A stretch of 64,000 nt of DNA from an uncultured Candidatus Berkelbacteria bacterium (GTDB lineage Bacteria; Patescibacteriota; UBA1384; UBA12157; JAENIV01): assembly GCA_963698075.1 (NCBI GenBank), contig OY969116.1, positions 606,131 through 670,130 on the forward strand, written 5' to 3'. A model generated the notes under the pieces. That model did not search any database. It had not been told where the DNA came from and saw only the letters and a list, made by a program, of their open reading frames with translations. The position numbers and the translations under genes were made by a program. Every line of letters starts with the position of its first letter. The first letter of the stretch is position 1. Positions 5,355 to 39,971 of this stretch are shown piece after piece.

Positions 5355-5386
5355 CTGGTTATCTTGAACACTGAGGAGCGAGAACA

Positions 5387-5641
5387 ATGAGAAAAGTTAG
5401 ACCCAGTTATCGAGGATGGGCAGAAGTCTGGTGGGATGGCCGTGACGCAGGCGTTTGGGCGCTAAGTTATGACTGGAATGGCCACAAGCCATTACTAGGT
5501 TATGTTTGGCTCGAAGCGGAGACCCTCAAGGAAGCGTTGGCCGAGGCATCCGAATATCTGGGCTGCAGTACCGATGAGATATCAGTGAGACCTGGAAGCG
5601 AAGACACAGAGACAGATGCCATTGAATTAGGACTATTGTAA
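5387..5641 (+). CDS. Hypothetical small protein (GC-rich cassette A)
   Basis: GAGGAG RBS 8 nt upstream, codon usage biased to GC at third positions, 84 aa, no recognisable motif. Confidence 0.45.
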   Translation: MRKVRPSYRGWAEVWWDGRDAGVWALSYDWNGHKPLLGYVWLEAETLKEALAEASEYLGCSTDEISVRPGSEDTETDAIELGLL

Positions 5642-5796
5642 AAGCTCGCGAGATTCAGGGATTAGTGATAGATGCTTCCGTGGTGATCTGTCAAGACTTA
5701 CAGGATCGCAAGAACGAAGAACTCAACAGAAGTGCGCCGGATATATATAACGGCTACTAAAGACAAGAGAGAACAAAAACGAACCCGTAAAGGCCC

Positions 5797-5825
5797 TTGA
5801 CATATAGGGCCTTTTGTGGTATACT
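5797..5825 (+). promoter_or_regulatory. Sigma70-like promoter (TTGACA-17-TATACT, TGn-extended) overlapping an inverted repeat
   Basis: AAAGGCCC[TTGACATATA]GGGCCTTTtgtggTATACT: the -35 box sits in the loop of an 8-bp inverted repeat. The roughly 130-nt leader contains the hairpins ACCC-GCAA-GGGT and CAGGTGGC-cta-GCCACCTG (5906-5927). Confidence 0.5.
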
Positions 5826-5961
5826 ACAATGTTTCACGGATAGTATGAAAAGTCCTTTGACAAGTCGCTCAAGGAAATAACCCGCAAGGGTATAGATAAC
5901 CAACCTTTCCCTCAGGTGGCCTAGCCACCTGTTCACTCTAACCTGTATAGGAGGCCCAACA

Positions 5962-6936
5962 GTGGCCACAAGGCTCTTGGTAGTTCTGGTCGTTGCAGTG
6001 ATGTTGTTTTCTGGTCTGGCTTACGGCCAGACCGCCGACCAGCCGAACCAGGGGGTTCCGGCTGGCACGGTCGTGGGACCCGCAAGTCAGGACATGGGAA
6101 GTGCGCCGGAAACGGCACCGCCCCAACCTGGCCAGGTGCAGCCCCAATCGGGGCCGCTGGAGATGCGGATCGCTGGCGGTCTGGATGTCCGGCTCATCGG
6201 ACAGCAGCCACAAGTGGTCTACAGGGATCGCTGGCGGACACGGACCCGCACGGTCACCAAGACCATACGGGTCGCGACCAAGTCGGAACCGAATCCGAAC
6301 ATCCGGGTCGACAAGCTGAACCTTAATGTCTACCCGTCGACCCAGCCGTCTGCCGTAACCCCTCCGCGTAGCGGAGGGCAAACGCTAAGCCCACCGGCAA
6401 CGCCGGTGCAGGGAGGTAGCAGAGTGTCGCTGATCAACGTTCCGTTCGACAATCTTCTCGTCGTCATCGGCGGCGCCATCGCGATCATCGCGATAATCTA
6501 CGCGATGATTCGCAACATGCATCGCGAGGAGCAACAGACGGCCCGCGCCCGGGAGACAACGGCCCAGGCCCAGGCCACCCAGTTCGGAACGGCTCTAGCC
6601 AATCAGGCACCGTTCCAGCCAGCCGCGGGAAGAGATGTGGATATGTCTGTCACTGTCTTCCCCGGTGGTGGTGGCGTGGTCCGCGCTCGCTCGAACGAGC
6701 GGCCGCAGGGAACCGTGGTGCAGCCCATTGCGCCACCACTGGCGGCAATGGTGGTGACGGCCCCCGGCCAACCCGTCAATGTCATCACTTTCGGCAACGC
6801 GCCCGTTGCCCTGCCCGGCCAACTGGTGGCTCTGCCGCCCGTTCCTCCGGCACCGCCCGTTCCTCCGGTACCTCCGGCTCCGCCCGCCCCGCGCCTCAAC
6901 CCCAACCAGCAGCCGCCCGCAGCCGCCGCTGCGTAA
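5962..6936 (+). CDS. Proline-rich membrane-anchored protein (GC-rich cassette A)
   Basis: GTG start 8 nt after TAGGAGG. Signal peptide MATRLLVVLVVAVMLFSGLAYGQ, central transmembrane helix LLVVIGGAIAIIAIIYAMI, C-terminal PPVPPAPPVPPVPPAPPAP repeats. By eye the region is about 65% GC. Confidence 0.55.
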   Translation: MATRLLVVLVVAVMLFSGLAYGQTADQPNQGVPAGTVVGPASQDMGSAPETAPPQPGQVQPQSGPLEMRIAGGLDVRLIGQQPQVVYRDRWRTRTRTVTKTIRVATKSEPNPNIRVDKLNLNVYPSTQPSAVTPPRSGGQTLSPPATPVQGGSRVSLINVPFDNLLVVIGGAIAIIAIIYAMIRNMHREEQQTARARETTAQAQATQFGTALANQAPFQPAAGRDVDMSVTVFPGGGGVVRARSNERPQGTVVQPIAPPLAAMVVTAPGQPVNVITFGNAPVALPGQLVALPPVPPAPPVPPVPPAPPAPRLNPNQQPPAAAAA

Positions 6937-6962
6937 CCCGCTTCAATTCGACCCATCAATCA

Positions 6963-6998
6963 GAAGGCTCGGACATCCGTCCGAGCCTTCTTCATATC
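6963..6998 (+). terminator. Intrinsic terminator of cassette A
   Basis: GAAGGCTCGGAC-atcc-GTCCGAGCCTTC followed by TTCATAT. Confidence 0.5.
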
Positions 6999-7022
6999 TC
7001 AAAAATTTTTATCTCAATTTAT

Positions 7023-8000
7023 TTAAGGATTTCGTCTCTGTTGTCTTTGTCCTTGTGGTCCTCCGCCCCTGCGGCCAATTTTTCGAAAAGCATTTACAAA
7101 TTGATTAATGTCCTCGATCGTTGTCTCAATTGGCTGATTATTGGTAGCGTCTAAAAGATAAATAATATTATCTTCAACATCGGCAATAATCACTCGAGCG
7201 GTCAAACCTTGGAGTTCAGCTGGAAGTTGTACGCCCGGCTTTAAAGCCCAAATTTCATTTTGTTTGGGAGTTTTTGACGGCTTCTTCTCTTTTTCCTTCT
7301 CGATTGGCCTTATCCCAGCAATCGCCAAATCAAAAATATCAACAATTGGCCGGCGCTTGCCTTCGCGAGCCAATTCCGCCTGACCGGGTTTTTTCTCCAC
7401 TCGCTTAAATTTATAATTTCCCGCGTCAATTGGCCGTGCTCTCGGATCCGAGCGGTCAGCAATTGTCTGCTCTGGACCAATTATTAATTCGTCACCGTCC
7501 TTAACGCCAATCAGCCAATCTTCCACCAACTCTCTGCCTTTACTAAGCAGGTTTTCAATCGACATTTGAAATCTGCCAGGCTGTTGCTCGGTTACGGGCT
7601 GGGGTTGAAAAGTTTGATCAAGTTTGTCATACAATACCCGTCCGTTCTGCCAATCTATCTCGATGATCCGCAAATACCCTCTGCCGCCGACATCTTCGTA
7701 AATCCAAATTTGACCAACTGCTGGCAATCCTTTTTCTAACTGACGACCAAGTTCCTGATATCTTTCCTGATTAGTGGCGAATGTCTCCTCGGGCGTCGGT
7801 GTCGGCGCCGGCGCTTCCGGCACTTCGGGAACCCGACCGAGCATTTCTTGTCGTTTAGCTTCTTGCTCCTCAGACAAAATCTCTTCCATTTCACCTCCTT
7901 CTTTCCCCTTCCAAGCCGCCCCTAAAGCCAAACCGCCAAAAACCGCCGCGATTTGAGCGGCCGTTCGACCGATAATTGTTTCTGCGCCTGGGCCAATCAC
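7023..8000 (-). CDS. Hypothetical protein
   Basis: 325-aa ORF. Its GTG start overlaps the stop of the upstream gene (GTGA), which indicates translational coupling. No recognisable motif. Confidence 0.45.
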   Translation of the reverse strand: MIGPGAETIIGRTAAQIAAVFGGLALGAAWKGKEGGEMEEILSEEQEAKRQEMLGRVPEVPEAPAPTPTPEETFATNQERYQELGRQLEKGLPAVGQIWIYEDVGGRGYLRIIEIDWQNGRVLYDKLDQTFQPQPVTEQQPGRFQMSIENLLSKGRELVEDWLIGVKDGDELIIGPEQTIADRSDPRARPIDAGNYKFKRVEKKPGQAELAREGKRRPIVDIFDLAIAGIRPIEKEKEKKPSKTPKQNEIWALKPGVQLPAELQGLTARVIIADVEDNIIYLLDATNNQPIETTIEDINQFVNAFRKIGRRGGGPQGQRQQRRNP

Positions 8001-9055
8001 GTGGTACCCAGTTTCGCCGCCGTGGTGGTCATGGTTTCACCCTGGTTGTAGATAAAATTCCAAACATGATTAATATTTCGTACCGCATGGAAAAAGCCAT
8101 TGCGGTCCAAATCAAAAATTCCCATGCTCGTCAGGCCTTTGAGACCAAGCCAAAGCCCACCAGCGGCGCCGACACCGGCACCAATGGCGGACAAAATTTC
8201 CCGCCGGCGATTCCACATTGCTTTGGTCTGACCCAAACGTTCTTCTGCCGCCAAAACTTGCTCGGATTGAGTATGGAAACTATTAATAATTTCCGTATAA
8301 AGGCGGGTTTTTTCGGCTGGGTCAACGCCTTCCCCCGTGGCCTGAAGGGCCATTTCTCGCATTCGGCACCAATCAGCCACTTGGGCCTCAACGATTTTTT
8401 GTCTTCGGCCGCGTTCGTGACCATAAAGATGTTCTAAGCCCTCAGCAAAGCCCCGGCCAGCCATCGAGCCAAATAAAGCCGCGGCAGCAGGGTAAGCTAG
8501 ACCACCAGTTAGAACGCCAACTACTCCTAATGTGCCGGCCATCAAAAGGGTCTTTTTATTAAAAATAGTGGTTAAAGCCTTTCGGCCGAATTCGTGCCAG
8601 GCAACTCGCCGGGCTTGGCCGTCCGGATTCGCCTCAAAATCGCGTTCTTCCGCCAGCATTCTTCCTAGCCGGCCGAGCCGGCGGCCCCCGTGCTTTTCTT
8701 CTAATTTCAGTTCCCGAAACTGCTCGGCCGATATAATCGTCATCAAATGAACCAAATCTTCGGGATTTGTTGACGCAGAAAGTTCTCTGACTCTTTCAAT
8801 TCCACCCATGGGCTGTCCGGCTTGGCGTTCGGCCTGGCGCCTCTGCGCTTCCATCGCCGCCTGCTCTTGAGCCAGTTCTTCTTGACCTCCTGCTGACGGT
8901 GGCGGTTGGGGTTGTTCTCGCCGACCCCAAGGCCACCAGCGGCGGCGGCGCGGTTCTTCGGCTGGTGTCGGGGCCGGCACTTCGTTCAAACGCGGGGGTG
9001 GTTCCTCGGCACCGGCTTCTTCTGGCCCTGGACCACCAGGGGCTCCTTCTGGCAT
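7997..9055 (-). CDS. Hypothetical membrane protein with Pro/Glu/Arg-rich N-terminus
   Basis: AGGAG RBS upstream of ATG. Low-complexity N-terminus (PEGAPGGPGPEEAGAEEPPP), a coiled-coil and C-terminal hydrophobic helices. Confidence 0.45.
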   Translation of the reverse strand: MPEGAPGGPGPEEAGAEEPPPRLNEVPAPTPAEEPRRRRWWPWGRREQPQPPPSAGGQEELAQEQAAMEAQRRQAERQAGQPMGGIERVRELSASTNPEDLVHLMTIISAEQFRELKLEEKHGGRRLGRLGRMLAEERDFEANPDGQARRVAWHEFGRKALTTIFNKKTLLMAGTLGVVGVLTGGLAYPAAAALFGSMAGRGFAEGLEHLYGHERGRRQKIVEAQVADWCRMREMALQATGEGVDPAEKTRLYTEIINSFHTQSEQVLAAEERLGQTKAMWNRRREILSAIGAGVGAAGGLWLGLKGLTSMGIFDLDRNGFFHAVRNINHVWNFIYNQGETMTTTAAKLGTT

Positions 9056-9066
9056 AATTACTCCTG

Positions 9067-9414
9067 TTATTGGCCGCTTTTAGCGGCGGTATTCGTCTTA
9101 AATAATTCTACCATTTCCGTTTTATAAATTATGGCTTCCTGCGCTAATAAACTGGTAATATCAAGATTTTTACTTTTGAGGAATTCATCAACTTTGCCTT
9201 TATCATCGGCGTCAATTAGCTGATCAATCTCTTTGCCTTCTTCTTCGGAAAGTTGATCATAAATGCGGGCAATAGTCCGATTTTGGACGGTCTCGGCCAT
9301 TTTAGTGTAGAGCTCCTGTTTTTTTTCTGGCGGCAAATCCGCACCACCAATGAGTTCTAAGAGATCTTTTTCTAATAAATCTTTAAGTTCTTCATCACTA
9401 ATCAATTTAGCCAT
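9067..9414 (-). CDS. Hypothetical acidic protein
   Basis: Start taken as MAKLISDEEL (ATG preceded by AAGGAGG). It is the first gene of a three-gene minus-strand operon. Confidence 0.45.
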   Translation of the reverse strand: MAKLISDEELKDLLEKDLLELIGGADLPPEKKQELYTKMAETVQNRTIARIYDQLSEEEGKEIDQLIDADDKGKVDEFLKSKNLDITSLLAQEAIIYKTEMVELFKTNTAAKSGQ

Positions 9415-9441
9415 TTTAGGCCTCCTTGCTTTTATCATAAA

Positions 9442-9472
9442 ATATTCTTGACAAAAGTCAATTTTTATGCTA
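9442..9472 (+). promoter_or_regulatory. Sigma70-like promoter (TTGACA-17-TATATT, TGn-extended) plus roughly 180-nt leader of cassette B
   Basis: cTTGACAaaagtcaatttttatgcTATATT. The leader up to ATG 9656 contains CCCCG-ccaaaga-CGGGG followed by TTGCTGTTTTAG, which looks like an attenuator or terminator. Confidence 0.45.
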
Positions 9473-9655
9473 TATTATTTCAGTTATGATTGGAAGGTAA
9501 CTTTTCTGGACACTTCCTACCTTTCATCGGCAGTTTGACAACTGAATATTGCCAAAAAAGCCGCACCCAACCGATATACCCCCGCCAAAGACGGGGTTGC
9601 TGTTTTAGTCGGGAATCCACCATCGGCCTGCAGAGGCCAAGGAGAGCGAGGTATC

Positions 9656-10411
9656 ATGTCGACGATGTTGAAGCCCCCGCAGTTCACCGAAGAAGAGGAG
9701 GAGCAGCTTGGCCGTGCCTTTGGCACGTCGACACTGCTCGAGAAGTTCATCGTCTCTGTCGCGATCCGGGTGATCGGTCTGTTGGCCGACGCATCCGACT
9801 GGCTCAAGGACCAGATCCGGACCGTGGTCGCCGAGATGTTCGGCGTAGCGGATCCGGCGCAAGCCCGCGGTGCTATCCAGTCTCTCGTCAACGAGGCCGT
9901 GGACAAGGCCATCGAGCCGCTGACCGAGCGCCTCAGGCGCCTTGAGGAAGCGGGACGACTGTCTGACGCCCCCGCCGGGCCACAGCGTGACCCCGAGATG
10001 GTACGCACCGAGATCATTCCCGGGATCGTCGTGGCCGTCATGAACGACCGTGCGTTCTTGGAGTCGCTCAGCTACGAAGAGGTCCAGGCGCTCACGATCA
10101 ACAGGGACTATGTCTCCTCTGAGTTTGTCCAGAGAATCTGGGATCACGAGATCCTCAGAGACCTCTGGGGCTCGGAGGAAGGCATGAGGGAGCGCCGGAT
10201 GGAGGCCGTGGCCAAGTTCATCGACGCCGAGATGGAGGCCATGGTGAGCGCCATGAAGAAGATTCTCAAGCGCTCCAAGGCGGCGCAGGAGAAGGCCAAC
10301 ATCGGCTGGGCGCAGTACCTCCTGGTCCACTTGGGGGTTGACCCCGCGGACACCAAGGCGGTTCGCACCGCCATGGGCAGGCAGCCCGAGTTGAAGGCCT
10401 ACCTCAAGTAG
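9656..10411 (+). CDS. Hypothetical protein (GC-rich cassette B)
   Basis: AAGGAGAG RBS. Acidic N-terminus and helical body; no motif recognised. High GC. Confidence 0.5.
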   Translation: MSTMLKPPQFTEEEEEQLGRAFGTSTLLEKFIVSVAIRVIGLLADASDWLKDQIRTVVAEMFGVADPAQARGAIQSLVNEAVDKAIEPLTERLRRLEEAGRLSDAPAGPQRDPEMVRTEIIPGIVVAVMNDRAFLESLSYEEVQALTINRDYVSSEFVQRIWDHEILRDLWGSEEGMRERRMEAVAKFIDAEMEAMVSAMKKILKRSKAAQEKANIGWAQYLLVHLGVDPADTKAVRTAMGRQPELKAYLK

Positions 10412-10505
10412 GCGCACGCACGGACATTCGGGGGCCCCGCCGCGCATGGCGGGGCCCGATTGTATCGTCTGACACGCTGAACCACACTCTACAACGGAGG
10501 TCATT

Positions 10506-11867
10506 ATGAGCGCAACCGCTGTCGAAAAACCGAATACGACACCGGAGCGTCGGGAGCGCAAGGACTTCACCACGCTCCTGACCACGGAGTTTGGTGGGCC
10601 AGTTAGGCTCACCTACAGGGAGTTCGACACCAGCGAGAGGGGCGTCAAGATGCGCCGCCTCGCTGGCAACCGCAGCCAGATCGCCAAGGCCCTGGACATT
10701 TCCGAGGACGACGTTCCTTGGATCTTCCCGGTGGCTTGCTGGATCCCGGAGTTGGGCGACACGGTCACGTGTTACGTCCGGCTCTCGTGGTCGGGCAAGA
10801 CGATCAATGCGGTCCCAACGCGCTGGTATGAACTTCAGCGCGTGGGTAAGTGGCAACCACAAAACGAGTTCAACGCCAACGAACTCGTCTTCGAGCAGCG
10901 CGGTAGGGGCTGGGCGACAACGACCAGGCCCTACGTCAAGATCTGGCGGGACTTCCAAGTCACGCCAGACGCTGACGGCAAGGTGCGCTTCGCACCCCGC
11001 ACTGTTGCAGTCCGGCGGGCCATGACTGCCACCTTCTGGATTGCTGGGGCACCGGAGCAGATCCGGAACCTCGGAGTCCGCGAGATCGATGTGTTCCTGG
11101 AACGGCCGGAGGAGCAGTACTCCTACGCCATCCAGGTTCCGATCCTCGGAAGATGGTACACCGCTATCGAACTCGTCGGGCTCACCCGGCTCGAGGCGGT
11201 GCTGGTGGACCTCGACAGCATCCAGAGCAATCTGGAGTCCATGATTTCCAGCGCCGAAGGCTGGGTCATGGACATCCTGCTGCCGACCATCCACCCGGCC
11301 AACATCAACAAGATGGGCCTACCTTCTGGTGCTCTGACTCTGGCCGACGAGGCTAGAAGCAACACCAACCGGCTGGTGGACTGGCTCCGGGGCTGGGCGA
11401 CTTGGGCCGTGGAAGACTTCCGCGCCAAGCGCCGCTCAGGTATCCGGGAAGCTGTCATTGCCATCCCTGAGCCCACCGGTCGCACCTCACGCCAGGACGC
11501 CCTCATGGAATGGAAAGCCGAGCAGATCATTACCCGGCTTGAAAGCCTGGCGGCGGGGACCAAGAAGCAGGAGAGGCCGGACGGCAAGACCAAGCGGCGG
11601 GGCAAGAAGGTTCCTGATGGGCCTAAGGATCGACGCGCTCAGCGCGGTAGGTCGGTGGCCGGCGCCGGGGACGACGTCGACAACTCGATCGGCAGCCGCG
11701 TGAACGGCGCTGATCGCGAGAGGCTCGCTAGGATGGCCAAGAAACCGTCCTTCCGCTACGTCGCCTGCGATGGATGCGGGAGCAAGCACAGGATGCCCCT
11801 GTCCTTCAAGGGCAATTCCGTCCCCCTGGCCAACTGCCCCAGACAGAAGAAAAAGGGCCGGAAGTAA
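10506..11867 (+). CDS. Hypothetical protein with C-terminal Cys cluster (GC-rich cassette B)
   Basis: ACGGAGGT RBS. 453 aa. The C-terminus has YVACDGCGSKHRMP...ANCPRQKKKGRK, which looks like a zinc ribbon plus a basic tail. Confidence 0.5.
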   Translation: MSATAVEKPNTTPERRERKDFTTLLTTEFGGPVRLTYREFDTSERGVKMRRLAGNRSQIAKALDISEDDVPWIFPVACWIPELGDTVTCYVRLSWSGKTINAVPTRWYELQRVGKWQPQNEFNANELVFEQRGRGWATTTRPYVKIWRDFQVTPDADGKVRFAPRTVAVRRAMTATFWIAGAPEQIRNLGVREIDVFLERPEEQYSYAIQVPILGRWYTAIELVGLTRLEAVLVDLDSIQSNLESMISSAEGWVMDILLPTIHPANINKMGLPSGALTLADEARSNTNRLVDWLRGWATWAVEDFRAKRRSGIREAVIAIPEPTGRTSRQDALMEWKAEQIITRLESLAAGTKKQERPDGKTKRRGKKVPDGPKDRRAQRGRSVAGAGDDVDNSIGSRVNGADRERLARMAKKPSFRYVACDGCGSKHRMPLSFKGNSVPLANCPRQKKKGRK

Positions 11868-11964
11868 TCCGGCCAAGTGCCGATCCCCAGCGGGCGGCTC
11901 GAAAGCCGCCCGCTGGATTCTGATTCACACGACACTCTGACGTCACAAGGAGAGAGTTACAACC

Positions 11965-13743
11965 ATGTCTAAGGTGATCGGAATTGATCTCGGTACCACC
12001 AACACGGTGGCTGCCGGAATCCAAGACGGAGAACCGGTGATTGTGCCCTCCGCAGCGGGCACATCAACGACACCTTCGATCGTCGCCTACGCTGACGGCA
12101 AGGTGCTTACGGGCTACACCGCCAAGCGCCAAGCCGTCATCAACCCGACTGGCACGGTGACCGGCATCAAGCGAATCATTGGTCGCCGATTCGATGAGGT
12201 GACGAGCGAACGCGAGACCGCGGCCTACCAGATCGTGGAAGGGCCGGACGGATTCGCGGCGGTCAAGATCGGCGAGACCGTCTTCATGCCAGAGGCGGTG
12301 ACCGCGCAGATCCTGACGACTGTCAAGCGTGCCGCCGAAAAGCACTTCGGCCAGGAAGTGAGCGAGGCGGTCATCACCATCCCCGCTTACTTCAACGACA
12401 CCCAGCGCACAGCTACCCGCAACGCGGGCGCGGTCGCCGGGTTGGATGTCAACATGACCTTTCACGAACCCACCGCCGCATGCATCGCCTACGGGTTCGG
12501 TAAGAAGGCCGTGCCCGAGACAATCCTCGTCTGGGATCTGGGTGGCGGAACATTCGACGTCTCCATCCTCGCCACCGGTGCCACCAACCAGGTGCTCGGT
12601 ACTTCCGGTGACTCGCACCTCGGGGGCAACGATTGGGATGATATCCTCGTTGCCTGGCTCATCAGCCAGATCAAAGAGGCCGGCGTCGACCCGACCGAGA
12701 ACCTCCAGTCACTCACGGCCATCCGCGAGCAGGCAGAGGCCGCCAAAATCGCCCTGTCGAGCGCGGAGACGGTCAAGATCAAACTGCCGTTCATCGGCAG
12801 CAGGAAGTCCGGCCGCCGAAGCGTTCCGGTCCACTTTACCGGGACGCTCACCCGAGAGCAACTCGAGGCCATGAGCGCCGAGCTGCTTGTGCGACTTCGG
12901 TCGCCGTTTAAGCAGGCGCTCAAGAACGCTTCCCTCAAGGTTGACGGCCTCGACGCCGTCATTCTGGTGGGAGGCGCCACCAACATGCCCATGGTCCAGC
13001 GCCTGGCGCGGGAACTCTGCGGCAAGGAACCGCGCACCGTTTCGCGCCTCGAAGAGATCGTGGCGCGGGGTGCGGCGATTCAGGCCGGGGCGTCGGCTCG
13101 AGAATTGGTGGCGCCCGCGCTCTTGGACATCACGCCTCTGTCACTGGGAGTACGCCGGGGCAAAGAGGGAATGGATGTTATCATCCCTCTGGGGACGCGC
13201 ATCCCAGCGACTTTCACCAAGCCCTACACCACGACGGCTAACGGCCAGACGGCCGTGGACATCGAGGTGTGGCAGGGCGAAAGCCCGATCGCCGGCAACA
13301 ACCACTTCCTGGGAAAGTTCACCCTCCCTGGCATTCCGCCGGCGCCCAAGGGCCGCACCAAGATTGATGTGACTTTCAGCATCGACTCCTCGGGCATCCT
13401 GTCGGTATCGGCGATCGACGCCGAATCCGGCAGGAAACGGGCGATCACGGTGACAGGCACGAGCCTGCCGCCGGAGACCATCCGCCGGATGCTCGCCGAG
13501 GCCGAGGCCAACGCCGAAGCCGACCGTCAGCGCCTCGAGGCCGAAGAGGCCAAAGAGGCACTCCGGCCCTTAGTGGCCGAGGCTGAGGAAGCTGCTACCA
13601 AGCTCGAGGGCAAAGAGCGCCAGGACTTCGAACTGGTGCTCGAGAATGGTCGCAAGGCCCTCGAGAGTTCCAACTCCGAGCAGGTCAAGTCTGCGACTGG
13701 CCTGCTCAAGACCGCTCTGGAAGGGACAAAGGCAACTGCCTGA
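11965..13743 (+). CDS. Hsp70/DnaK-family chaperone (divergent)
   Basis: IGIDLGTTNTVAA, ITIPAYFNDTQRTATRNAG and DLGGGTFDVSIL are the phosphate-1, connect-1 and phosphate-2 motifs of Hsp70. AAGGAGAG RBS. High GC. Confidence 0.8.
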   Translation: MSKVIGIDLGTTNTVAAGIQDGEPVIVPSAAGTSTTPSIVAYADGKVLTGYTAKRQAVINPTGTVTGIKRIIGRRFDEVTSERETAAYQIVEGPDGFAAVKIGETVFMPEAVTAQILTTVKRAAEKHFGQEVSEAVITIPAYFNDTQRTATRNAGAVAGLDVNMTFHEPTAACIAYGFGKKAVPETILVWDLGGGTFDVSILATGATNQVLGTSGDSHLGGNDWDDILVAWLISQIKEAGVDPTENLQSLTAIREQAEAAKIALSSAETVKIKLPFIGSRKSGRRSVPVHFTGTLTREQLEAMSAELLVRLRSPFKQALKNASLKVDGLDAVILVGGATNMPMVQRLARELCGKEPRTVSRLEEIVARGAAIQAGASARELVAPALLDITPLSLGVRRGKEGMDVIIPLGTRIPATFTKPYTTTANGQTAVDIEVWQGESPIAGNNHFLGKFTLPGIPPAPKGRTKIDVTFSIDSSGILSVSAIDAESGRKRAITVTGTSLPPETIRRMLAEAEANAEADRQRLEAEEAKEALRPLVAEAEEAATKLEGKERQDFELVLENGRKALESSNSEQVKSATGLLKTALEGTKATA

Positions 13744-13913
13744 GTCCCTCATGAGCACGCCTATCAGAACCCCCGGTCACCCGACCGGGGGTTCTTCATA
13801 TCCAAGGCATTGACATTTATCTTGCCTTCTGGTATACTATTTGAGACGCAATTGAGTAACAGCCCGAGCCAAAGAACAAATTGCGCGCACATTCACAAGG
13901 AGCGCCAGTGACC

Positions 13914-15590
13914 ATGTATCGTGATAATCAGCCCCCTGAACTTGTTGCCACTCTTACCTTCAAGCCCGGCGATCCGTCAAAGGATTCACGACTGGTCACG
14001 TATTATGACAGCAAGACCGTCATCCCCTGCACTCGTTGCCGACATTGCGGCTTTGGTGAGTGGGAAGCCACTCTCGAGCCCGGCAAGGAATACCCGGTGA
14101 TTCTGGAGGAACGTCAGAGGCGCCAAGGAACAGCAATCATCGTCTCCTACGTCGCCCATGCCTGGATCCCCAAGCAGGTATCACCATTCTGGCAACAAAT
14201 CGTCGCCCCGATTGAGACGATTGAGATCGGCTCCACTGGTCTTGAGATTGTCTTTTTGGGCGGCATGGCCGAGGCTGGCTCGCGGGCCTGTGCCCTCATT
14301 ATCTACAAGGGTCATGCCCTCCTGGTCGACTGTGGGATTAACGTTGCCTCTCTTTCTAGAGGGGAGACGCTTGCCTCCCACGAGATTGACCTCGAGGACT
14401 ATGAATCCTTGGCCAGGATGAAGGAACTCCCGGATTTTCCCATTCTCACCCACTTCCTGGAGTCAAGAGAGATCCAGCTGGTCGGGATTCTGGTGACCCA
14501 TAGCCACTTAGACCATTACGGTGGACTGGTGGCCCTCAAGTCCATTCTGGGTGAGCTGATGCCTCAGATCTACGGTACCCAGTTTACCCGCTCGATGATC
14601 AGCCATTACTGCTCTGACCGCGGTTTCCCTTATCCAAGGCTTGAACCGATTACTCCGGGAACCGAAACCGCCATCGGACCGTTTCGCATCCTGCCGTTTG
14701 GGGTTCCTCATGCGGTGATGGATGCTCTTGGCTACTCCATTGGGGTTGAAGGCGAACCTTCCCGCGTGGTGTTCTCGGGCGATCTCAAGGCCCACTACCG
14801 AACGCCCCGTGATATCTTTACCTTCACCGAGGCCCTCAAAGGCCTCCCGCCAACCAAAGCCCTGGTACTTGACTCAACCAACGCCAGCGTGCCTGGTCTT
14901 TCCGGGCTCGAGGATGAGGTTGAACAGGGGATGATCGAAATCCTCAGCCGCGCACCGGGCCGAGTGATTGTCACCTTCTTTTCAACCCGCTTCGATCGGC
15001 TCCAGATGCTCGTGGAACTGGGCGCCCTTTTCGGCAAGGAAGTCGGTGTCTGGGGTGCGAGTTTCAAGCCCACGCTTGAAGCCGCCAGAAATCGCGGTCT
15101 GTACTTTTCCAACCTTGCCGAGGATAAGGTATTCGAATGCGACATCATCGCGGTTACCGGCTGTCAGGCCAATGATACTTCTGTCGCCTGGCGCCTGGCC
15201 CTAGGCGAGCGGTGCGGTGGCATCAGCCTTCGGCCTGACGATACCTTCGTCCTTTCGGCGGTGCCAATCCCGGGCCGGATTACTCCGGTCCGGATGATGC
15301 TCGAAAACTGCCTGAACATCACTGGATCCGAGGTCTGGGTAGACCACTACACCAAGAGGGCGCCCGTGGGTTGCCGCAAAACCCGCACTCACGTGTCTGG
15401 TCACGGCTTCCAGGAGGACATCCGGATTATCTTCGAAAGTCTCCAGCCAGAGTACGTCATCCCGTACCACGCCTCTCTGCCGGCGATGGTTGACCTCGCT
15501 GATCTCGTCACTTCCCCCAACACTCGCCACTGTCTTGATCCGAGCCGAGTTATCCTCTTTGAGGACAACGGCGGCACTATCGTTCTCTAG
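13914..15590 (+). CDS. Metallo-beta-lactamase / beta-CASP RNase J-like hydrolase
   Basis: HSHLDH (the HxHxDH motif of MBL enzymes) and THVSGHGFQEDI (an RNase J-like H-x-SGH motif). Start taken at ATG 13914 after CAAGGAGCG. High GC. Confidence 0.65.
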   Translation: MYRDNQPPELVATLTFKPGDPSKDSRLVTYYDSKTVIPCTRCRHCGFGEWEATLEPGKEYPVILEERQRRQGTAIIVSYVAHAWIPKQVSPFWQQIVAPIETIEIGSTGLEIVFLGGMAEAGSRACALIIYKGHALLVDCGINVASLSRGETLASHEIDLEDYESLARMKELPDFPILTHFLESREIQLVGILVTHSHLDHYGGLVALKSILGELMPQIYGTQFTRSMISHYCSDRGFPYPRLEPITPGTETAIGPFRILPFGVPHAVMDALGYSIGVEGEPSRVVFSGDLKAHYRTPRDIFTFTEALKGLPPTKALVLDSTNASVPGLSGLEDEVEQGMIEILSRAPGRVIVTFFSTRFDRLQMLVELGALFGKEVGVWGASFKPTLEAARNRGLYFSNLAEDKVFECDIIAVTGCQANDTSVAWRLALGERCGGISLRPDDTFVLSAVPIPGRITPVRMMLENCLNITGSEVWVDHYTKRAPVGCRKTRTHVSGHGFQEDIRIIFESLQPEYVIPYHASLPAMVDLADLVTSPNTRHCLDPSRVILFEDNGGTIVL

Positions 15591-15613
15591 AGCGATCCCA
15601 AGAACCCTTCCCA

Positions 15614-15646
15614 CCCCCGCGTCCCACGCGGGGGTGTTTCGTATTT
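15614..15646 (+). terminator. Intrinsic terminator of cassette B
   Basis: CCCCCGCG-tccca-CGCGGGGG followed by TGTTTCGTATTT. Confidence 0.55.
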
Positions 15647-15662
15647 ACAAATCTTTCTCGTT

Positions 15663-16631
15663 ATGCTATGCTTTGGTGTCATGACCATTCGTCAAACCTA
15701 TAATTTAGCCATCGCGATGGGCATTGCCGCTGATCCAAGGGGAAAGCGGGGGATTGAAAAGTGGCTCCAGCGCCAGCGCGCCAAATATAATAAACTTTCC
15801 CGCGATGAGCGCGCCTTATATGACCGCGAGCGCTTAACCAATCCTTATGCCGATACTCGCATTTTATTTGGCGATCCCAATGCCCGCGTCAAAACTATTT
15901 TAGCCGGCATTGATATTAATTCTGGCGATATAGCGCTTTCTAAAACCTTAAACCTGAAACCTGATCTCATCATCAACCACCATCCTCAAGGCAAAGCCCT
16001 GGCCGCTTTAGACGAGGTCATGAATTTACAAGCTGATTTGATGGCGGCCCAAGGCGTGCCCATCAATGTTGCCGAGGGCGTCATGAAAGCCCGCATCGAA
16101 CAAGTTTCCCGCACACTTGCCGGCGCCAATCACTACGAAACCGTTGACGCCGCCAAACTCGCTAAAATCCCATTTATGTGCACTCACACCGTTTGCGATA
16201 ATAATGTTTATAATTTTTTGACAAACTGGCTCGCCCACAAGCATTTTGAAACCGTTGGCGAATTAGTTGAGGCCCTCAAAAAGATTCCTGAATACAAAAT
16301 CGCCGCTCAAAACAATGCTGGTCCGCGCATCTTTGCCGGCTCACCCGAAAATCGAACTGGTAAAATTGTCGCTTTAGAAATCACTGGCGGCACCGAAGGG
16401 TCAAAAGAAGTTTATGAAAAATTAGCCCAAGCTGGAGTGGGCACGATTATCGGCATGCATATGAAAGATGAAAACCGCGAAGAAGCCCTCAAATATCACA
16501 TCAATGTCGTCATTGCCGGCCACATCTCTTCCGACTCCATCGGCATGAATTTGTTCTTAGATAAACTCGCTCAAAAAGGAATTAAAATCATCCCAGTTTC
16601 TGGTTTAATAAGAGTTAAGAGAACTAAATAA
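15663..16631 (+). CDS. Nif3-family dinuclear metal centre protein
   Basis: DLIINHHP (Nif3 D-L-I-x-HHP motif) and C-terminal VVIAGHISSDS. An alternative start is ATG 15681 (MTIRQ). Confidence 0.6.
   Translation: MLCFGVMTIRQTYNLAIAMGIAADPRGKRGIEKWLQRQRAKYNKLSRDERALYDRERLTNPYADTRILFGDPNARVKTILAGIDINSGDIALSKTLNLKPDLIINHHPQGKALAALDEVMNLQADLMAAQGVPINVAEGVMKARIEQVSRTLAGANHYETVDAAKLAKIPFMCTHTVCDNNVYNFLTNWLAHKHFETVGELVEALKKIPEYKIAAQNNAGPRIFAGSPENRTGKIVALEITGGTEGSKEVYEKLAQAGVGTIIGMHMKDENREEALKYHINVVIAGHISSDSIGMNLFLDKLAQKGIKIIPVSGLIRVKRTK
16559..16631 (+). repeat. Direct repeat copy 1 (Nif3 3' end); copy 2 is at 17393-17460
   Basis: The roughly 70 nt from ataaactcgctcaaaaagg... to ...ataa recur after the cofE stop at about 85% identity. 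Both copies keep the reading frame KLAQKGIKIIPVSGLIRV(K/R)R. Confidence 0.7.
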
Positions 16632-18219: not shown

Positions 18220-18256
18220 CGAGCTTGTCGAGGTGTAAAATATTTTCTTTACATTA

Positions 18257-28559: not shown

Positions 28560-28571
28560 GGAAGGAGCGAG

Positions 28572-36630: not shown

Positions 36631-36758
36631 TTATCCTATAACCCGATTGCGTGGTTGTCCACAGCGAGTTATCCACAATTGAGCCAATCTCATAATATGT
36701 AAGTTATCCACAGCCTGTCAACACCCGCTTAGTGATTGTGGATTGGGTTGTGGAAAAA
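36631..36758. promoter_or_regulatory. Second DnaA-box cluster upstream of dnaA
   Basis: TTGTCCACA 36655-36663, TTATCCACA 36669-36677 and 36704-36712, TGTGGATTG 36738-36746, TGTGGAAAA 36750-36758. Confidence 0.7.
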
Positions 36759-36835
36759 TTTTATAAGAAAAAAGAGCGGTTTTCGTACGCTCTATCCGTC
36801 CCTAAAGGGACAAGACTTACGGTAGGGGTTTCCCC

Positions 36836-37027
36836 CTACATGCACTCAACGATGTACGCGATCTTCTCGTACGCGCTTCCTTGTTCATCTCGCGCCGAGG
36901 TCCATGTGAAGACCCACTTTGTGCTTGTTCGGGGCAGGCGTCGGAGCTCGTCTTTTATGGGCTTCATTCTCTCCTCGGTCTGCCTGACGATCTCTTCGAT
37001 CCGGCGATACTTCTCCTCAATGTCCAT
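36836..37027 (-). CDS. Hypothetical small protein (GC-rich cassette E)
   Basis: AAGGGAGAAGAAG RBS, 63 aa, charged helical. A terminator-like GAGCG-n-CGCTC plus T6 lies downstream at about 36770-36795 on the minus strand. Confidence 0.4.
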   Translation of the reverse strand: MDIEEKYRRIEEIVRQTEERMKPIKDELRRLPRTSTKWVFTWTSARDEQGSAYEKIAYIVECM

Positions 37028-37146
37028 CTTCTTCTCCCTTGCTTAGTTAAAATCCTACTTCTGTTTCCATGAACTCTTTTCAGAGCTGATGGAGACAGAA
37101 GGGGATGCCGCCGATCGTATTGACCCGGCGGCTCGGTTGGATGTCC

Positions 37147-37515
37147 TTATCTTGTTTTGATGTCGTCAGGGGTGATCCCGCTCTCGGGCAGCAGGTTCAA
37201 CACCCTACCGACGTGGTTACCTTCGGGGTCGAGCACATCGATCACGAAGGCCCGCATCCTTGTTACTTCCCCGGCCGTGAGTTGATTAAGCCCACGGACC
37301 AGGCCTTCCAACAGGGGTCCGATGAGCTGTTGGTCCTCCATCGCATCACCGAGGGGGTTCTGGTTGGGGCGAGGATCATGCTGGAGGACATGGCGCGCGA
37401 CTGAGTTCGTCCACCAGACGCTGCCCGCCCCGCCCGGTCCCACATTGGCTGTTTCCTCACTTTCAAGACGTATCTTGTCCGTGCGGAGAGTGATGAAGGC
37501 GACCAGGTTCTTCAT
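37147..37515 (-). CDS. Hypothetical protein (GC-rich cassette E)
   Basis: Start taken at MKNLVAF (ATG 37515 after GGGAGGTGAG). The longer ORF reaching 37593 would include the promoter -10 box. Confidence 0.5.
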   Translation of the reverse strand: MKNLVAFITLRTDKIRLESEETANVGPGGAGSVWWTNSVARHVLQHDPRPNQNPLGDAMEDQQLIGPLLEGLVRGLNQLTAGEVTRMRAFVIDVLDPEGNHVGRVLNLLPESGITPDDIKTR

Positions 37516-37564
37516 TTTCTCACCTCCCTTCATAACGGGTTGTACCTGATTTTCAGAACTTATG

Positions 37565-37638
37565 ATTATAACACAATCTGCCGAATTTGTCAAGTATTTT
37601 CGACTATATTTGACATCTTAGGTAATACCTGATATACT
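37565..37638. promoter_or_regulatory. Divergent consensus promoters between cassette E and TrmB-3
   Basis: Minus strand: TTGACA (37588-37593 rc)-17-TATAAT (37565-37570 rc) with TG extension. Plus strand: TTGACA 37610-37615, 17 nt, TATACT 37633-37638. Confidence 0.55.
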
Positions 37639-37696: not shown

Positions 37697-38461
37697 GTGG
37701 AATATCTAAAATCTTTACAAAAACTTGGCTTTAATCAAAAAGAGCAAGATGTTTATTTTGCTCTCCTACAGTTGGAGAAAGCCACGGCCAATGAGATCGC
37801 TTATAAATCAAAGGTTAAGCGGCCGACAACTTATGATATTCTCTACCGTCTCGTCTCTGAGGGCTTTGCCGCCAAGGTGTTGGAAAACGATAAGATGAAA
37901 TTTGTTGCTCGGCCGCCGGAAAATTTGTTGGAAATCATCGAAAATCGAAAAAGAGAACTTAAGGCAGATTTACCGGAATTATTGAGCATTTATAATACTA
38001 AAGCCAATAAACCGAAAGTCGCCTATTTCGAAGGCTTAGATGGAGTCATTCAGCTTTACGAGGATACCTTGCTGACCTTAAAATCCGGCGATGAGATCGT
38101 CGCTTATTTTTGTGATTACGAAATCCCTGAACATAACAAATATATGCATGACTATGTTTTGCGCCGGGCTGCGAAAGGGATTAGGGCCCGAGGAATCGGT
38201 CAAGATAAACCTAAGATAAGAGAATTCATCAAAGAGAACAAAAAGCAGTTGCGAACATCTAAACTAGTCAGCGAGAAAGAATACCATCTCAAAAACGAGA
38301 TCAACATTTATGCCAACAAAGTCATTATTATCACCTTCAAACCCGAACTTTTCGGGATCCTCATCGAATCCAAAGAAGTCGCTGACACCCAGCGCGCCAT
38401 CTTCGAAATGGCGTGGAGGGGACTCCCGTCCAGTCTGCGTTCTCCAGGGATTTATAGATAA
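37697..38461 (+). CDS. TrmB-family transcriptional regulator (paralog 3)
   Basis: GTG start after GGAGGA. EQDVYFALLQLEKATANEIAYKSKVKRPTTYDILYRL wHTH. C-terminus LIESKEVADTQRAIFEMAW. Confidence 0.7.
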   Translation: MEYLKSLQKLGFNQKEQDVYFALLQLEKATANEIAYKSKVKRPTTYDILYRLVSEGFAAKVLENDKMKFVARPPENLLEIIENRKRELKADLPELLSIYNTKANKPKVAYFEGLDGVIQLYEDTLLTLKSGDEIVAYFCDYEIPEHNKYMHDYVLRRAAKGIRARGIGQDKPKIREFIKENKKQLRTSKLVSEKEYHLKNEINIYANKVIIITFKPELFGILIESKEVADTQRAIFEMAWRGLPSSLRSPGIYR

Positions 38462-38462
38462 G

Positions 38463-38496
38463 AAAAGGGCGCCGGCCGGTTGGCAAGCGCCCCTCG
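38463..38496. terminator. Bidirectional GC-rich hairpin terminator between convergent TrmB-3 and cassette F
   Basis: GGGCGC-cggccggttggca-GCGCCC, with AAAAG on the plus side and TTTTCTTATC on the minus side. Confidence 0.5.
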
Positions 38497-38535
38497 TCGA
38501 GTGGTTACTGATTCGATCTTCTCTCAGGGCCCCTG

Positions 38536-38736
38536 TCAGGCAGCCCACTTGTGGCTGTATTTGGGATTGGTACAGACCTCCCACCACCCAGGGTCGTCGG
38601 GACCGCTGACAGCCACCTTCGAGCCGCACTTGGGGCAAGGTCGGCGGCTGTAGTACGTCTTCGGCTGGCAAGCCTCTTTCTTCTCCTCTTTCTTCGCCCG
38701 GCGGAAAATCTTCTTGAGCAGTTCTCGGACGTTCAT
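38536..38736 (-). CDS. Small zinc-ribbon protein (GC-rich cassette F)
   Basis: 66 aa. CPKCGSKVAV...C, basic N-terminus. GGAGAAAAG RBS. Confidence 0.5.
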   Translation of the reverse strand: MNVRELLKKIFRRAKKEEKKEACQPKTYYSRRPCPKCGSKVAVSGPDDPGWWEVCTNPKYSHKWAA

Positions 38737-38782
38737 TTCTTTTCTCCGTCATCAGGTTAGTCGCTCGGCCACCGGCCGGTTT

Positions 38783-39466
38783 TCAGTGCGCCCTGTCCCA
38801 GTAGCCCTGTGTGTGGCTCCAGTTCTGCCAGTAGTAGTAGGTTTCCATGGGGAAGACGACTTCGGTGTAGGTGTGAGAAAGACAGGCAAAGATGGACCTC
38901 ACCAGACCTGTTACGGCCTCGAACTCATCCCTTTTCGTTGAAATACAGAGGGCGAAGTTGAGTATGGGTGAGATTCCAGTGGTGACCGGTGGTCTCCCGG
39001 ATTGCCACTTCATGGGCATCAGAGAGAAGGCGCAATAGTTACGGTTGATGCTACCTTCCAACTGGCCCAAGTACCACTCCTCAAACGGCTGAGGATTGGT
39101 CTGCCATTCGGGGAAGTCCTCGCTCACGCTCATTTCCCGGATAAAGCCCGAGAAGTAGAACCAGAGGTAGGGGTTCGGATCCCCTTCCTCGCCCTGATTG
39201 GGATAGACCAACCGCGCCTGGAATGGGCCACTAATAGCCGAGACGAGCCATTCGAGCACAGTCACCAAGCCGGGCGCAGGGGCACAGGAATGATGAGCGG
39301 AACCCATGGTAACTACCGGGTCCTCTAGTCGGTAGAGTACCTTTGAGTGGCTCCCCAGCATGGGGCAGGGTTGAGCTACCATGGTTGGCTGGGCCGGACA
39401 CTTGTTCGACCTCAGCAGAGCCACAAGCTGAACGACCAGAACAGCAACAACAAGCACGATTAGCAT
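38783..39466 (-). CDS. Secreted hypothetical protein (GC-rich cassette F)
   Basis: AAAGGAG RBS. Signal peptide MLIVLVVAVLVVQLVALL. Trp/Tyr-rich mature domain. Confidence 0.5.
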   Translation of the reverse strand: MLIVLVVAVLVVQLVALLRSNKCPAQPTMVAQPCPMLGSHSKVLYRLEDPVVTMGSAHHSCAPAPGLVTVLEWLVSAISGPFQARLVYPNQGEEGDPNPYLWFYFSGFIREMSVSEDFPEWQTNPQPFEEWYLGQLEGSINRNYCAFSLMPMKWQSGRPPVTTGISPILNFALCISTKRDEFEAVTGLVRSIFACLSHTYTEVVFPMETYYYWQNWSHTQGYWDRAH

Positions 39467-39481
39467 TTCCTTTCTCCTTTT

Positions 39482-39943
39482 TCAGGGTGACTTCATTACC
39501 CTTGTTAGCGCTCGAACGATCTTCGGGGCCATTCGGCTGCGAAATCTGGCGTAGGCTGAGATTGCGCCTGGCCCAGGTCGAAGGCCCAACAGCTCTGCCT
39601 CATAGGACCCTAACCGCTGCCCACAAGAATCATAGAAACAGACATATATCCTCCAGTTGGCTCGATAGGTTCCATTGACCGGCCGCTCTGACATGGATTG
39701 GTTAACGTCCCCGAGGATCCTATAGTCAGCTTGGACTTCCAGGCACATCTGTCGTGCTTGTTCCCAGTCTTGGTCCGGGAAATGAGACACCACGGCGGCC
39801 CCGCGCTTATTTAATTCTTCGCAGACTAAGTAATGAAGCACGCCGAAGCCGTCTCCTTTGAACGGATATCCTTGAAGGTCCTGCCAGAGACATACAGCGA
39901 CTCTCAGCGATATTTGGGAACATCTAACGAATGGGTTTGCCAT
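39482..39943 (-). CDS. Hypothetical protein (GC-rich cassette F)
   Basis: Start taken at MANPFVRCSQ (ATG at 39943 after AAAGGAGAAG). Several Cys residues. The longer ORF reaching 40054 runs into the promoter. Confidence 0.5.
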   Translation of the reverse strand: MANPFVRCSQISLRVAVCLWQDLQGYPFKGDGFGVLHYLVCEELNKRGAAVVSHFPDQDWEQARQMCLEVQADYRILGDVNQSMSERPVNGTYRANWRIYVCFYDSCGQRLGSYEAELLGLRPGPGAISAYARFRSRMAPKIVRALTRVMKSP

Positions 39944-39971
39944 CCGGTCTTCTCCTTTGTTCAGGTACAAC

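Follow-up and report, generated by a model that had tools for sequence, protein, structure and literature searches.

The 64,000-nucleotide stretch of DNA analysed here (hereafter, the window) comes from an uncultured Candidatus Berkelbacteria bacterium and contains six short gene cassettes, designated A to F, whose guanine-plus-cytosine (GC) content is distinctly higher than that of the surrounding backbone. These GC-rich segments are a real, lineage-wide second compositional compartment, and neither an assembly error nor a one-off transfer. They are interpreted, with roughly even confidence, as the hypervariable portion, of replacement type, of the flexible genome in one Berkelbacteria-related clade of the Candidate Phyla Radiation (CPR, Patescibacteria). 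The slots share one layout, consisting of a resident near-consensus sigma-70 promoter, a short resident leader, one to four genes with strong Shine-Dalgarno (SD) sites, and a GC-rich hairpin terminator. Judged by comparison with related genomes, the promoter, leader, and flanking genes are inherited with the backbone and the cargo is not; between relatives, the cargo differs as unrelated genes (slots E and F), by presence or absence (A1, C, and D), or as deeply diverged alleles (A2 and B).

Genomic Context and Assembly Support

The window forms part of a source contig of about 929 kb. Pfam searches placed recF, dnaN, and dnaA at 32.6-36.5 kb and rnpA, yidC, and jag at 41.0-43.0 kb of the window, and also identified metK, four TrmB-family regulator genes, a DUF5663 gene, and a type IV secretion-like cluster comprising PrgI, a VirB4/TraG-like ATPase, and a TrbL_3-like protein. 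By DnaA, the closest species representative is a Candidatus Berkelbacteria metagenome-assembled genome (61% identity), followed by Doudnabacteria and Saccharibacteria. Gene content and DnaA affinity together identify the window as the origin (dnaA) region of a Berkelbacteria-related CPR chromosome.

The present interpretation rests on ten loci of related genomes. Loci L083-L090 were reached through cluster-mates of TrmB1 and TrmB2, two of the four regulators, and loci L171-L177 through orthologues of the DUF5663 protein. The backbone of these loci is 70-88% identical to that of the window as DNA and 86-90% as protein, with none of the recovered relatives exceeding 90% nucleotide identity in the backbone.

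An independently assembled Logan contig (run ERR10755944) matches window positions 1966-20743 with 99.99% identity over 18.8 kb, crossing all six junctions of cassettes A, B, and C. The same GC-rich slot architecture was seen in at least 10 contigs from other samples and assemblers, and the junctions of the GC-rich segments coincide with promoters, SD sites, and terminators. The conclusion of an earlier, sequence-only annotation (hereafter, the initial annotation) that the cassettes are not an assembly chimera is borne out by the agreement of the Logan contig at the A, B, and C junctions and by the recurrence of the slots in relatives from other samples.

The window and the Logan assembly, which represent the same population, differ at two single nucleotides, both of them indels located inside island genes. 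Near 8009, a G is missing in the window, splitting the 677-aa gene u677 into 7023-8000 and 7997-9055; at 19049, the 258-aa C2 gene is interrupted by an additional A within an A-run. Both frameshifts are either assembly errors or phase-variable frameshifts of island genes.

Composition and Borders of the Cassettes

The six intervals delimited in the initial annotation have GC contents of 58.7% (A), 60.7% (B), 53.5% (C), 52.1% (D), 55.6% (E), and 55.7% (F), versus 41.1% outside them over the whole window and 43.6% outside them within 5375-39950. At the level of single genes, A2 reaches 66%, B1-B3 63%, B4 57%, A1 51%, and the genes of C to F 50-56%, compared with 38-47% for backbone genes. The contrast of 60-67% versus 35-40% originally described therefore applies to A2 and B1-B3 only, the figures being too high for four of the six cassettes. 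The GC content at third codon positions (GC3) of B1-B3 is 0.79-0.86, amino acid usage in the cassettes is moved towards Gly, Ala, Arg, and Pro, and the abundance of spurious antisense open reading frames was confirmed.

Maximum-likelihood change points were located at 6942, 9560, 15635, 18340, 19654, 21701, and 22628 in the left part and at 36774, 37508, 38378, and 39994 in the right part, within tens of nucleotides of the GC steps first reported. Their support intervals span 20-130 nt, widening to about 160 nt at the right border of B and, in additional tests, to 135 nt at the left border of A2 and about 270 nt between B3 and B4, so that a switch within a few nucleotides, as originally claimed, cannot be shown. 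A seventh island of intermediate GC content (48-55%) at 7023-9055 had been overlooked, as had the TrmB pairing of cassettes C to F and the frameshift differences from the second assembly.

The GC-normalised dinucleotide distance (delta*) between cassettes and backbone is 0.17-0.19 for all six cassettes, above the 95th percentile of the null distribution (0.10 and 0.14 for pieces of 6 kb and 1 kb, respectively). Among the cassettes themselves, the distance is 0.06, and between the cassettes and the cargo of relatives it is 0.05-0.12; the cassettes are one compositional class.

Slots with Exchangeable Cargo

A divergent TrmB-family gene adjoins each of cassettes C, D, E, and F, with the two promoters back-to-back. 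The four TrmB-family genes encode an N-terminal winged-helix domain (PF01978, E = 3e-10 to 1.6e-16, above the Pfam threshold) and are mutually about 20% identical, and are therefore old paralogues.

In slot E, the cargo occupies 36755-37539 on the minus strand (E1 37147-37515, E2 36836-37027, terminator about 36773-36795) behind a resident promoter matching 12 of 12 consensus positions (37565-37593, minus strand), and the TrmB1 gene lies at 37697-38461 on the plus strand with its promoter at 37610-37638. The borders of this slot were set where homology with L083, L084, and L086 ends. Relatives retain the divergent promoter region together with about 22 nt at the start of the transcript, promoter and leader being 78-84% identical to those of L083 and L084, while the cargo consists of two orphan open reading frames (ORFans) in the window, a 236-aa RNA_pol_A_CTD protein in L083-L085, and a radical-SAM/SPASM protein in L086.

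Slot F shows the same pattern. Its cargo (38422-39952, minus strand) comprises F1 (39482-39943), F2 with an N-terminal transmembrane segment (38783-39466), the zinc ribbon protein F3 (38536-38736), and a terminator at about 38464-38491; the resident promoter (40013-40041, minus strand, 12/12) is followed by a conserved leader hairpin and then the SD site, and the TrmB2 gene lies at 40119-40856 on the plus strand with its promoter at 40078-40106. Homology with L086 (87.6%) extends through TrmB2, both promoters, the leader hairpin, and the SD site, ends there, and restarts immediately past the terminator of the cargo, which in L086 is a single unrelated 253-aa gene of 56-60% GC. Slots E and F sit among dnaA, TrmB1, TrmB2, and rnpA in L083-L086, of which L083-L085 are without slot F and without TrmB2.

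Other slots vary by presence or absence. The A1 module (about 5271-5793) is missing from L171; it contains a promoter read from the sequence as TTGACA-16-TGnTATGAT (5327-5354) and an 84-aa ORFan of 51% GC with the SD site GAGGAG (5387-5641), both on the plus strand. L171 is likewise without the block from the cassette C-paired TrmB gene through cassette C and the corresponding block of cassette D. In the former, the TrmB-family gene (17461-18210) and its promoter (18256-18284) on the minus strand are divergent from the plus-strand cassette C, which consists of a TG-extended 12/12 promoter (18303-18331), C1, an 88-aa membrane protein (18403-18669), C2, a membrane protein of 258 aa in L001 whose gene is split in the window by the extra A at 19049 (18765-19539), and a terminator (19575-19597). 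In the latter, the minus-strand TrmB-family gene (20790-21530, promoter 21573-21601) is paired with the plus-strand cassette D, consisting of a TG-extended 12/12 promoter (21624-21652), the 145-aa Cys-rich D1 (21695-22132), its 141-aa Cys-rich paralogue D2 (22159-22584), and a terminator (22607-22628).

Because promoters and leaders are conserved while the cargo differs, resident promoters appear to drive exchangeable cargo in these slots. The suggestion in the initial annotation that cargo is wired to host promoters thus holds for E and F and for A1, C, and D, which are present or absent.

Several further observations concern these slots. TrmB1 is 254 aa long in the window, versus 243-248 aa in the longer-contig relatives L083-L086, and its last residues (38417-38461) are encoded by the end of the F cargo, so that the insertion remodelled the C-terminus of the regulator. 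The 12-nt sequence GGTTGTACCTGA occurs at the leader-cargo junction of slot E (37538-37549) and, inverted, at slot F (39961-39972); it was rejected as a recombination site, since chance alone would give about 0.7 such matches in that region. GC-rich genes (57-65%) are also found elsewhere in relatives, at L084 12252-13928, L086 16088-16999, L131 10761-11528, and L085 1969-2799. In a pilus-gene slot between the T2SSE ATPase gene and the pilin genes, L084 carries an M48 peptidase gene and L086 a 303-aa ORFan, both GC-rich.

Slots A2 and B: Conserved Position and Deep Divergence

The A2 slot comprises a TG-extended promoter matching 11 of 12 consensus positions (5797-5825), the 324-aa, Pro-rich A2 with a signal peptide and one transmembrane segment (5962-6936, 66% GC), and a terminator hairpin of repeat family D4 (6959-6998), all on the plus strand. 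It is followed on the minus strand by u677 (7023-9055), a membrane protein gene of 48-55% GC that is split by the 1-nt deletion and corresponds to a 677-aa open reading frame in L001, and by the DUF5663 gene (9067-9414, 38% GC), the backbone flank of slot B. The promoter of cassette B (9448-9476, plus strand) stands back-to-back with that of DUF5663. The elements downstream of it, all on the plus strand, are the leader (9483-9655), in which the GC rise lies at about 9560 and a terminator-like hairpin with a T tract at 9580-9606; B1, a 251-aa all-helical ORFan with a GC3 of 0.86 (9656-10411); B2, a 453-aa member of a small LHPD-motif family with a C-terminal Cys4 ribbon (10506-11867); a hairpin 3' of B2 that is conserved in L082 (11887-11916); B3, a divergent Hsp70 of 592 aa (11965-13743), and its terminator (13763-13802); an internal promoter of B4 within a lower-GC patch (13810-13838); B4, an RNase J-family protein with metallo-beta-lactamase (MBL) and beta-CASP domains and an N-terminal extension of about 100 aa (13914-15590); and the B4 terminator (15612-15636).

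Between the TPR gene and metK, L171 and the window are collinear, with the order TrbL_3, A2-like, u677, DUF5663, then divergent B1, B2, Hsp70, and RNase J, followed by NIF3 and CofE. Slot B holds B1, B2, and RNase J in L172, B1, B2, and Hsp70 in L176, and two shorter genes in L174, and in all four of these relatives slots A2 and B adjoin DUF5663 and NIF3. The cassette B promoter is conserved in four relatives, L171, L172, and L174 among them, and a stretch comprising the A2 promoter, the leader, and the initial 90 nt of the gene shares 75% identity with L171.

The cargo remains GC-rich across these relatives (A2 65-67%, B1-B3 60-66%) between flanks of 38-49%. Protein identity to the relatives is 22-29% for B2, 48% for Hsp70, 40-54% for RNase J, and 25-40% for A2 (in L171 and L174), compared with 86-90% for NIF3 and 87% for CofE and MetK in the flanks. 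Between the window and L171, synonymous divergence (dS) in the backbone is 0.8-1.3 and nonsynonymous divergence (dN) 0.08-0.10, while dN of the cargo is 0.51-0.65. Despite this backbone dS, the GC3 of B1-B3 has remained at 0.79-0.86 in L171 and L172 as well as in the window, in agreement with the earlier statement that ordinary amelioration is not at work; it is 0.69-0.74 in the more distant L174. Non-coding spacers within B are also GC-rich (61-65%), the rise starting about 95 nt upstream of the B1 start.

Identity is unevenly distributed along some of these proteins. B1 of the window and that of L176 are 72-83% identical over the first 60 aa and less than 40% beyond, and u677 of L171 and L172 is 70-95% identical in the centre and 40-50% in its flanks; such mosaic profiles suggest recombination. 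A simple link between evolutionary rate and GC content is ruled out by the backbone gene at 1160-2428, which is fast-evolving (28% identity to its positional counterpart in L171) yet has 39% GC.

A 78-nt direct repeat (81% identical) at 16558-16635, in the 3' end of the NIF3-like gene, and at 17390-17467, past the CofE-like gene, brackets the latter gene; its second copy is 87% similar to the NIF3 3' end of L172.

Promoters, Shine-Dalgarno Sites, and Terminators

The sequence TTGACA-N17-TATAAT, with at most one mismatch, occurs at 12 sites in the 64 kb against an expected 0.41; seven of these drive cassette genes and four the paired TrmB genes, leaving one at another location. The density of near-consensus promoters in the relatives is about 4.5 times that in other CPR loci, and of 25 such sites in the relatives, 14 are directed towards DNA with a GC content of 53% or more. 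Every cassette gene (15/15) is preceded by an SD-like site, compared with 11 of 25 backbone genes (Fisher p = 3e-4). A GC-rich hairpin with a T tract ends B2, B4, C, and D, and hairpins at A2, B3, E, and F were read directly from the sequence. The expression signals listed in the initial annotation are accordingly present: near-consensus sigma-70 promoters at the cassettes, often TG-extended, an SD site at every cassette gene, and a hairpin terminator with a T tract at the end of every cassette. The description of the promoters as host-type also stands, promoter and leader being 78-88% identical to those of relatives carrying different cargo.

The A2 and B3 terminators have identical flanks (ATCAGAA...TTCTTCATATC), and their stems differ by compensatory changes. 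No Rfam family was matched in the leaders, and a structured RNA in the B leader was rejected, its fold being no more stable than that of shuffled sequence (z-score 0.17); from the position of its hairpin, attenuation in this leader is inferred. Among the backbone genes without an SD-like site are the NIF3-like gene (15681), TrmB2 (40119), metK, and recF, and some of these begin a few nucleotides past a -10 box; they may be expressed as leaderless mRNAs, unlike the cassette genes.

Clade Specificity and Search for a Source

Islands, defined as segments of at least 600 bp with a GC content at least 13 points above the local median, make up 11.4% of the window sequence. In nine genus-level relatives, with islands at seven of the nine loci, the share is 9.5%, compared with 0.5% across 40 further loci from the CPR and 0.1% across 68 dnaA loci from other taxa. 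The GC-rich island feature is specific to this clade. A search of the literature found no description of this architecture.

No source of the cargo was found. A phage or plasmid origin of the cargo was discarded after three viral-contig scans and searches of phage and plasmid proteins proved empty, the only PHROGs match being a generic metal-dependent hydrolase (MBL) for B4. PADLOC found no significant match in the cargo and one weak match, of the Hsp70 to the candidate model PDC-M61B (E = 8e-4). The dinucleotide signature was likewise of no use for tracing a donor, the cassette signature being bland and close to many unrelated genomes.

Proposed Mechanism and Alternative Explanations

If the slots are replacement-type loci, cargo would be exchanged through homologous recombination in the conserved flanks, and its composition (50-66% GC with a common dinucleotide signature) would be kept by circulation in a clade-specific gene pool. 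The cargo would retain its own composition because this pool is distinct from the backbone, where neutral amelioration in place would erode it. The resident promoter would drive expression of the cargo, and the adjacent TrmB-like protein would presumably gate it. The cargo would be accessory, including membrane or secreted proteins (A2, C1, C2, and F2) and, in cassette B, a putative dedicated set of an Hsp70, an HPD-motif partner, and an RNase J-like nuclease.

Several points weigh against this interpretation. Slot B is homologous over its entire length in the window, L171, and L172, and each gene has a GC content of its own that is constant across relatives (B4 57-61%, B1-B3 63-66%, u677 50-54%), a pattern that an equilibrium reached in place predicts as well or better. 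Nothing more than 49% identical to the Hsp70 was found among 5.8 billion proteins, including same-run and same-site assemblies; the cargo proteins are singletons at 90% identity, and an exhaustive profile search of 1.84 billion representatives retrieved just 28 clusters of the B2 family, nearly all with a GC-type amino acid composition. No viral, phage, or plasmid source was matched in IMG/VR, GenBank phages, or PLSDB, and no recombinase or repeated site was found at the cassette borders. Control of the cargo by TrmB is presumed from gene position, and, the relatives containing no near-identical strain pair, no replacement event has been caught directly.

In the main alternative, native, vertically inherited cargo evolved in place under a local GC-ward force, such as gene conversion biased towards GC at hot spots of recombination or selection acting on mRNA or codon content, that also quickens amino acid change towards Gly, Ala, Arg, and Pro. 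In its favour are the synteny and homology of A2 and B in all relatives with gene-specific GC levels kept, the persistence of a GC3 of 0.79-0.86, the GC-rich spacers and the rise ahead of B1, and the recombination of these loci indicated by mosaic identity. That GC-biased gene conversion operates in bacteria has been proposed (PMC4450053). It does not explain the non-homologous cargo in slots E and F and in the pilus-gene slot, from which it follows that replacement certainly happens, nor the abrupt borders and the AT-rich promoters within islands; the gene at 1160-2428 demonstrates that fast change alone does not raise GC, and the reported bacterial effects amount to a few GC3 points and not 40. 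Evolution in place is regarded as possible but rather unlikely. A tentative and somewhat doubtful proposal in the same direction is that GC-richness is actively maintained at the promoter-wired loci by a local, strongly GC-biased process, e.g., hot-spot gene conversion. If true, a GC3 of about 0.8 would be held in a genome of about 42% GC with protein evolution five- to sevenfold faster, making these loci the bacterial equivalent of vertebrate hot-spot genes, which are likewise GC-rich and fast-evolving. To our knowledge, a local GC-bias effect of such magnitude has never been reported in prokaryotes.

Recent import into this genome by horizontal transfer from GC-rich donors, such as the host of the episymbiont, was the reading of the initial annotation, which described the cargo as foreign. 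It fits the atypical GC content, amino acid usage, and dinucleotide signature, the absence of A1, C, D, and the slot F module from some relatives, and the frequency of genomic islands and horizontal transfer in Patescibacteria (PMC12455944). For slots A2 and B it is refuted by the syntenic, homologous, and GC-rich cargo in every relative, and more generally it is at odds with the low identity of the Hsp70, the lack of any homologue of most cargo in the same protein search, and a signature that indicates no donor, so that recent import is considered improbable. If all cassettes had been acquired in one ancient event at the root of the clade and had since ameliorated slowly under relaxed constraint, it would be clear why slots and signature are common to the relatives; by a rough calculation, however, a GC3 of at least 0.8 in three lineages at a dS of about 1 would need an ancestral GC3 above 1, which makes one import with neutral decay impossible, and the non-homologous cargo and mosaic profiles are equally unexpected, leaving this scenario quite improbable. 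A chimera of assembly or binning that interleaves reads of a GC-rich organism is conceivable for a sequence of metagenomic origin and yet extremely improbable in view of the Logan contig, the recurrence of the architecture across samples and assemblers, and the fit of the junctions to expression signals. Even more speculative than active maintenance of GC-richness is the notion that the cassettes are built for expression in a GC-rich host cell, which their universal expression signals, GC-rich codons, and neighbouring type IV secretion genes could suit.

Comparison with Known Systems

Replacement flexible genomic islands occupy a fixed position with conserved flanks, hold unrelated or deeply diverged content of atypical composition (PMC4033161), often encode exposed envelope proteins, and have been proposed to be exchanged by homologous recombination (Lopez-Perez, Martin-Cuadrado, Rodriguez-Valera 2014, PMC4033161). 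The slots resemble them in lying at the same location between conserved core flanks with cargo that is unrelated (E and F) or 22-54% identical (A2 and B). They differ in that the units are 0.8-6 kb long, of one operon each, and many per genome; the cargo is GC-richer and not GC-poorer than the core; each unit is wired to a resident near-consensus promoter and leader, often TrmB-paired; and one cargo is a cytosolic Hsp70/RNase J module. The single-nucleotide polymorphism peaks that are diagnostic at the borders of replacement islands need near-identical clonal frames, and only mosaic identity profiles are available here.

Similarities to classical acquired islands include atypical GC content, codon usage, and dinucleotide signature as well as accessory ORFans, but the cassettes are without an integrase, tRNA site, or flanking direct repeats, no recombinase domain being found in or beside any cassette and no repeats flanking them, and they are still GC-rich across genus-level divergence. 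As in integron cassettes, short variable cargo with hairpin-forming ends lies directly behind a resident promoter; unlike in integrons, the slots are scattered and not arrayed, every one of them has a separate promoter, and there is no IntI-type integrase or attC family, neither a tyrosine recombinase nor an attC-like repeat family having been found in the 64-kb window. In loci of the winged-helix-WYL regulators BrxR and CapW, a conserved regulator gene stands beside highly variable defence cargo. The arrangement here is similar in that a conserved winged-helix regulator gene adjoins variable cargo, although the regulator is of the TrmB family and the cargo lacks a significant PADLOC match. 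Eukaryotic hot-spot genes under GC-biased conversion share the high GC3, the shift to Gly, Ala, Arg, and Pro, the faster protein change, and the confinement to a locus, whereas the borders are abrupt here and some cargo is non-homologous between relatives.

Little is known about how CPR bacteria, with their tiny genomes and dependence on host cells, diversify. The clade described here has a second compositional compartment, amounting to about 10% of its DNA, at fixed positions, hard-wired to the strongest promoters of the region and often TrmB-paired, with turnover or divergence several-fold above that of the core genome. It offers a testable system for how streamlined symbionts vary envelope or conflict genes and for whether a strong local GC-biased force can act in bacteria, and it serves as a warning that composition-based binning and tests for horizontal transfer will mishandle such genomes.

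Cargo Proteins

The identification of B3 as a divergent Hsp70 is supported by a full-length profile match (PF00012, E = 6e-162, profile positions 1-587 of 599); the protein is without the C-terminal tail and at most 49% identical to any DnaK. B4, initially annotated as an RNase J-like MBL protein, matches PF22505, PF12706, PF00753, and PF07521, covering the MBL, beta-CASP, and RMMBL domains, as well as the RNase J entry 7wnt of the PDB (E = 1.8e-29, residues 107-534), which confirms the assignment; its extra N-terminal region of about 100 aa contains cysteines.

B2 had no match in Pfam or PDB. Its single 78%-identical homologue, P0122, lies on a 1.6-kb contig of 64% GC with gene order kept, and the dN/dS of 0.26 between the two indicates that the genes are functional. 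An LHPD motif, nearly invariant in the family, is present in 17 of 21 retrieved remote members, with HPA in its place in B2 of the window and in P0122. The motif lies between predicted helices in a J-domain-like manner, although alignment of the motif region on the HPD of J-domains with hhalign was not significant (probability 1%, P = 0.053). AlphaFold2 models of B2 and B1 were too poor for a structure search (predicted local distance difference test scores of 35 and 49, respectively).

By visual inspection, signal peptides or transmembrane segments are present in A2, C1, C2, F2, and u677, and not in B1-B4, D, E, F1, or F3; A2, C1, C2, and F2 thus look like membrane or secreted proteins.

Other Elements in the Window

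A block resembling an integrated element extends over 42959-57767 to the right of tRNA-Ser(cga), with a GC content of 39-45% that is backbone-like, unlike that of the cassettes. It holds a large serine recombinase (43232-44593), the sole recombinase of the window, together with an AAA_5 ATPase, a VWA protein, a ParB_N-N6/N4 methylase fusion, and a complete diversity-generating retroelement (46144-49526). The latter consists of a reverse transcriptase gene (46144-47214, minus strand), a template repeat at about 47550-47680, and two paralogous target genes, each carrying at its 3' end a variable repeat (47974-48094 and 49010-49148) whose mismatches fall at adenines of the template repeat. The cassettes were rejected as targets of this retroelement, its template repeat matching only its own two targets and no cassette in a self-comparison of the window. 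Between the serine recombinase and the retroelement lies a LOOT RNA (Rfam RF03000, 44756-44881, plus strand), which scored 74 bits against a gathering threshold of 46.4.

The domain at 57800-64000 has a GC content of 31-35% and contains a DUF4238 gene (58761-59675). Its dinucleotide signature is still that of the backbone (delta* 0.068), and the domain is therefore compositionally distinct but probably native. Finally, at 20679-20722, two tandem 22-nt palindromic units (TTGTAGTCCATTCTGACTACAA) lie across the annotated start of a nucleotidyltransferase-HEPN gene pair and probably serve as its operator.

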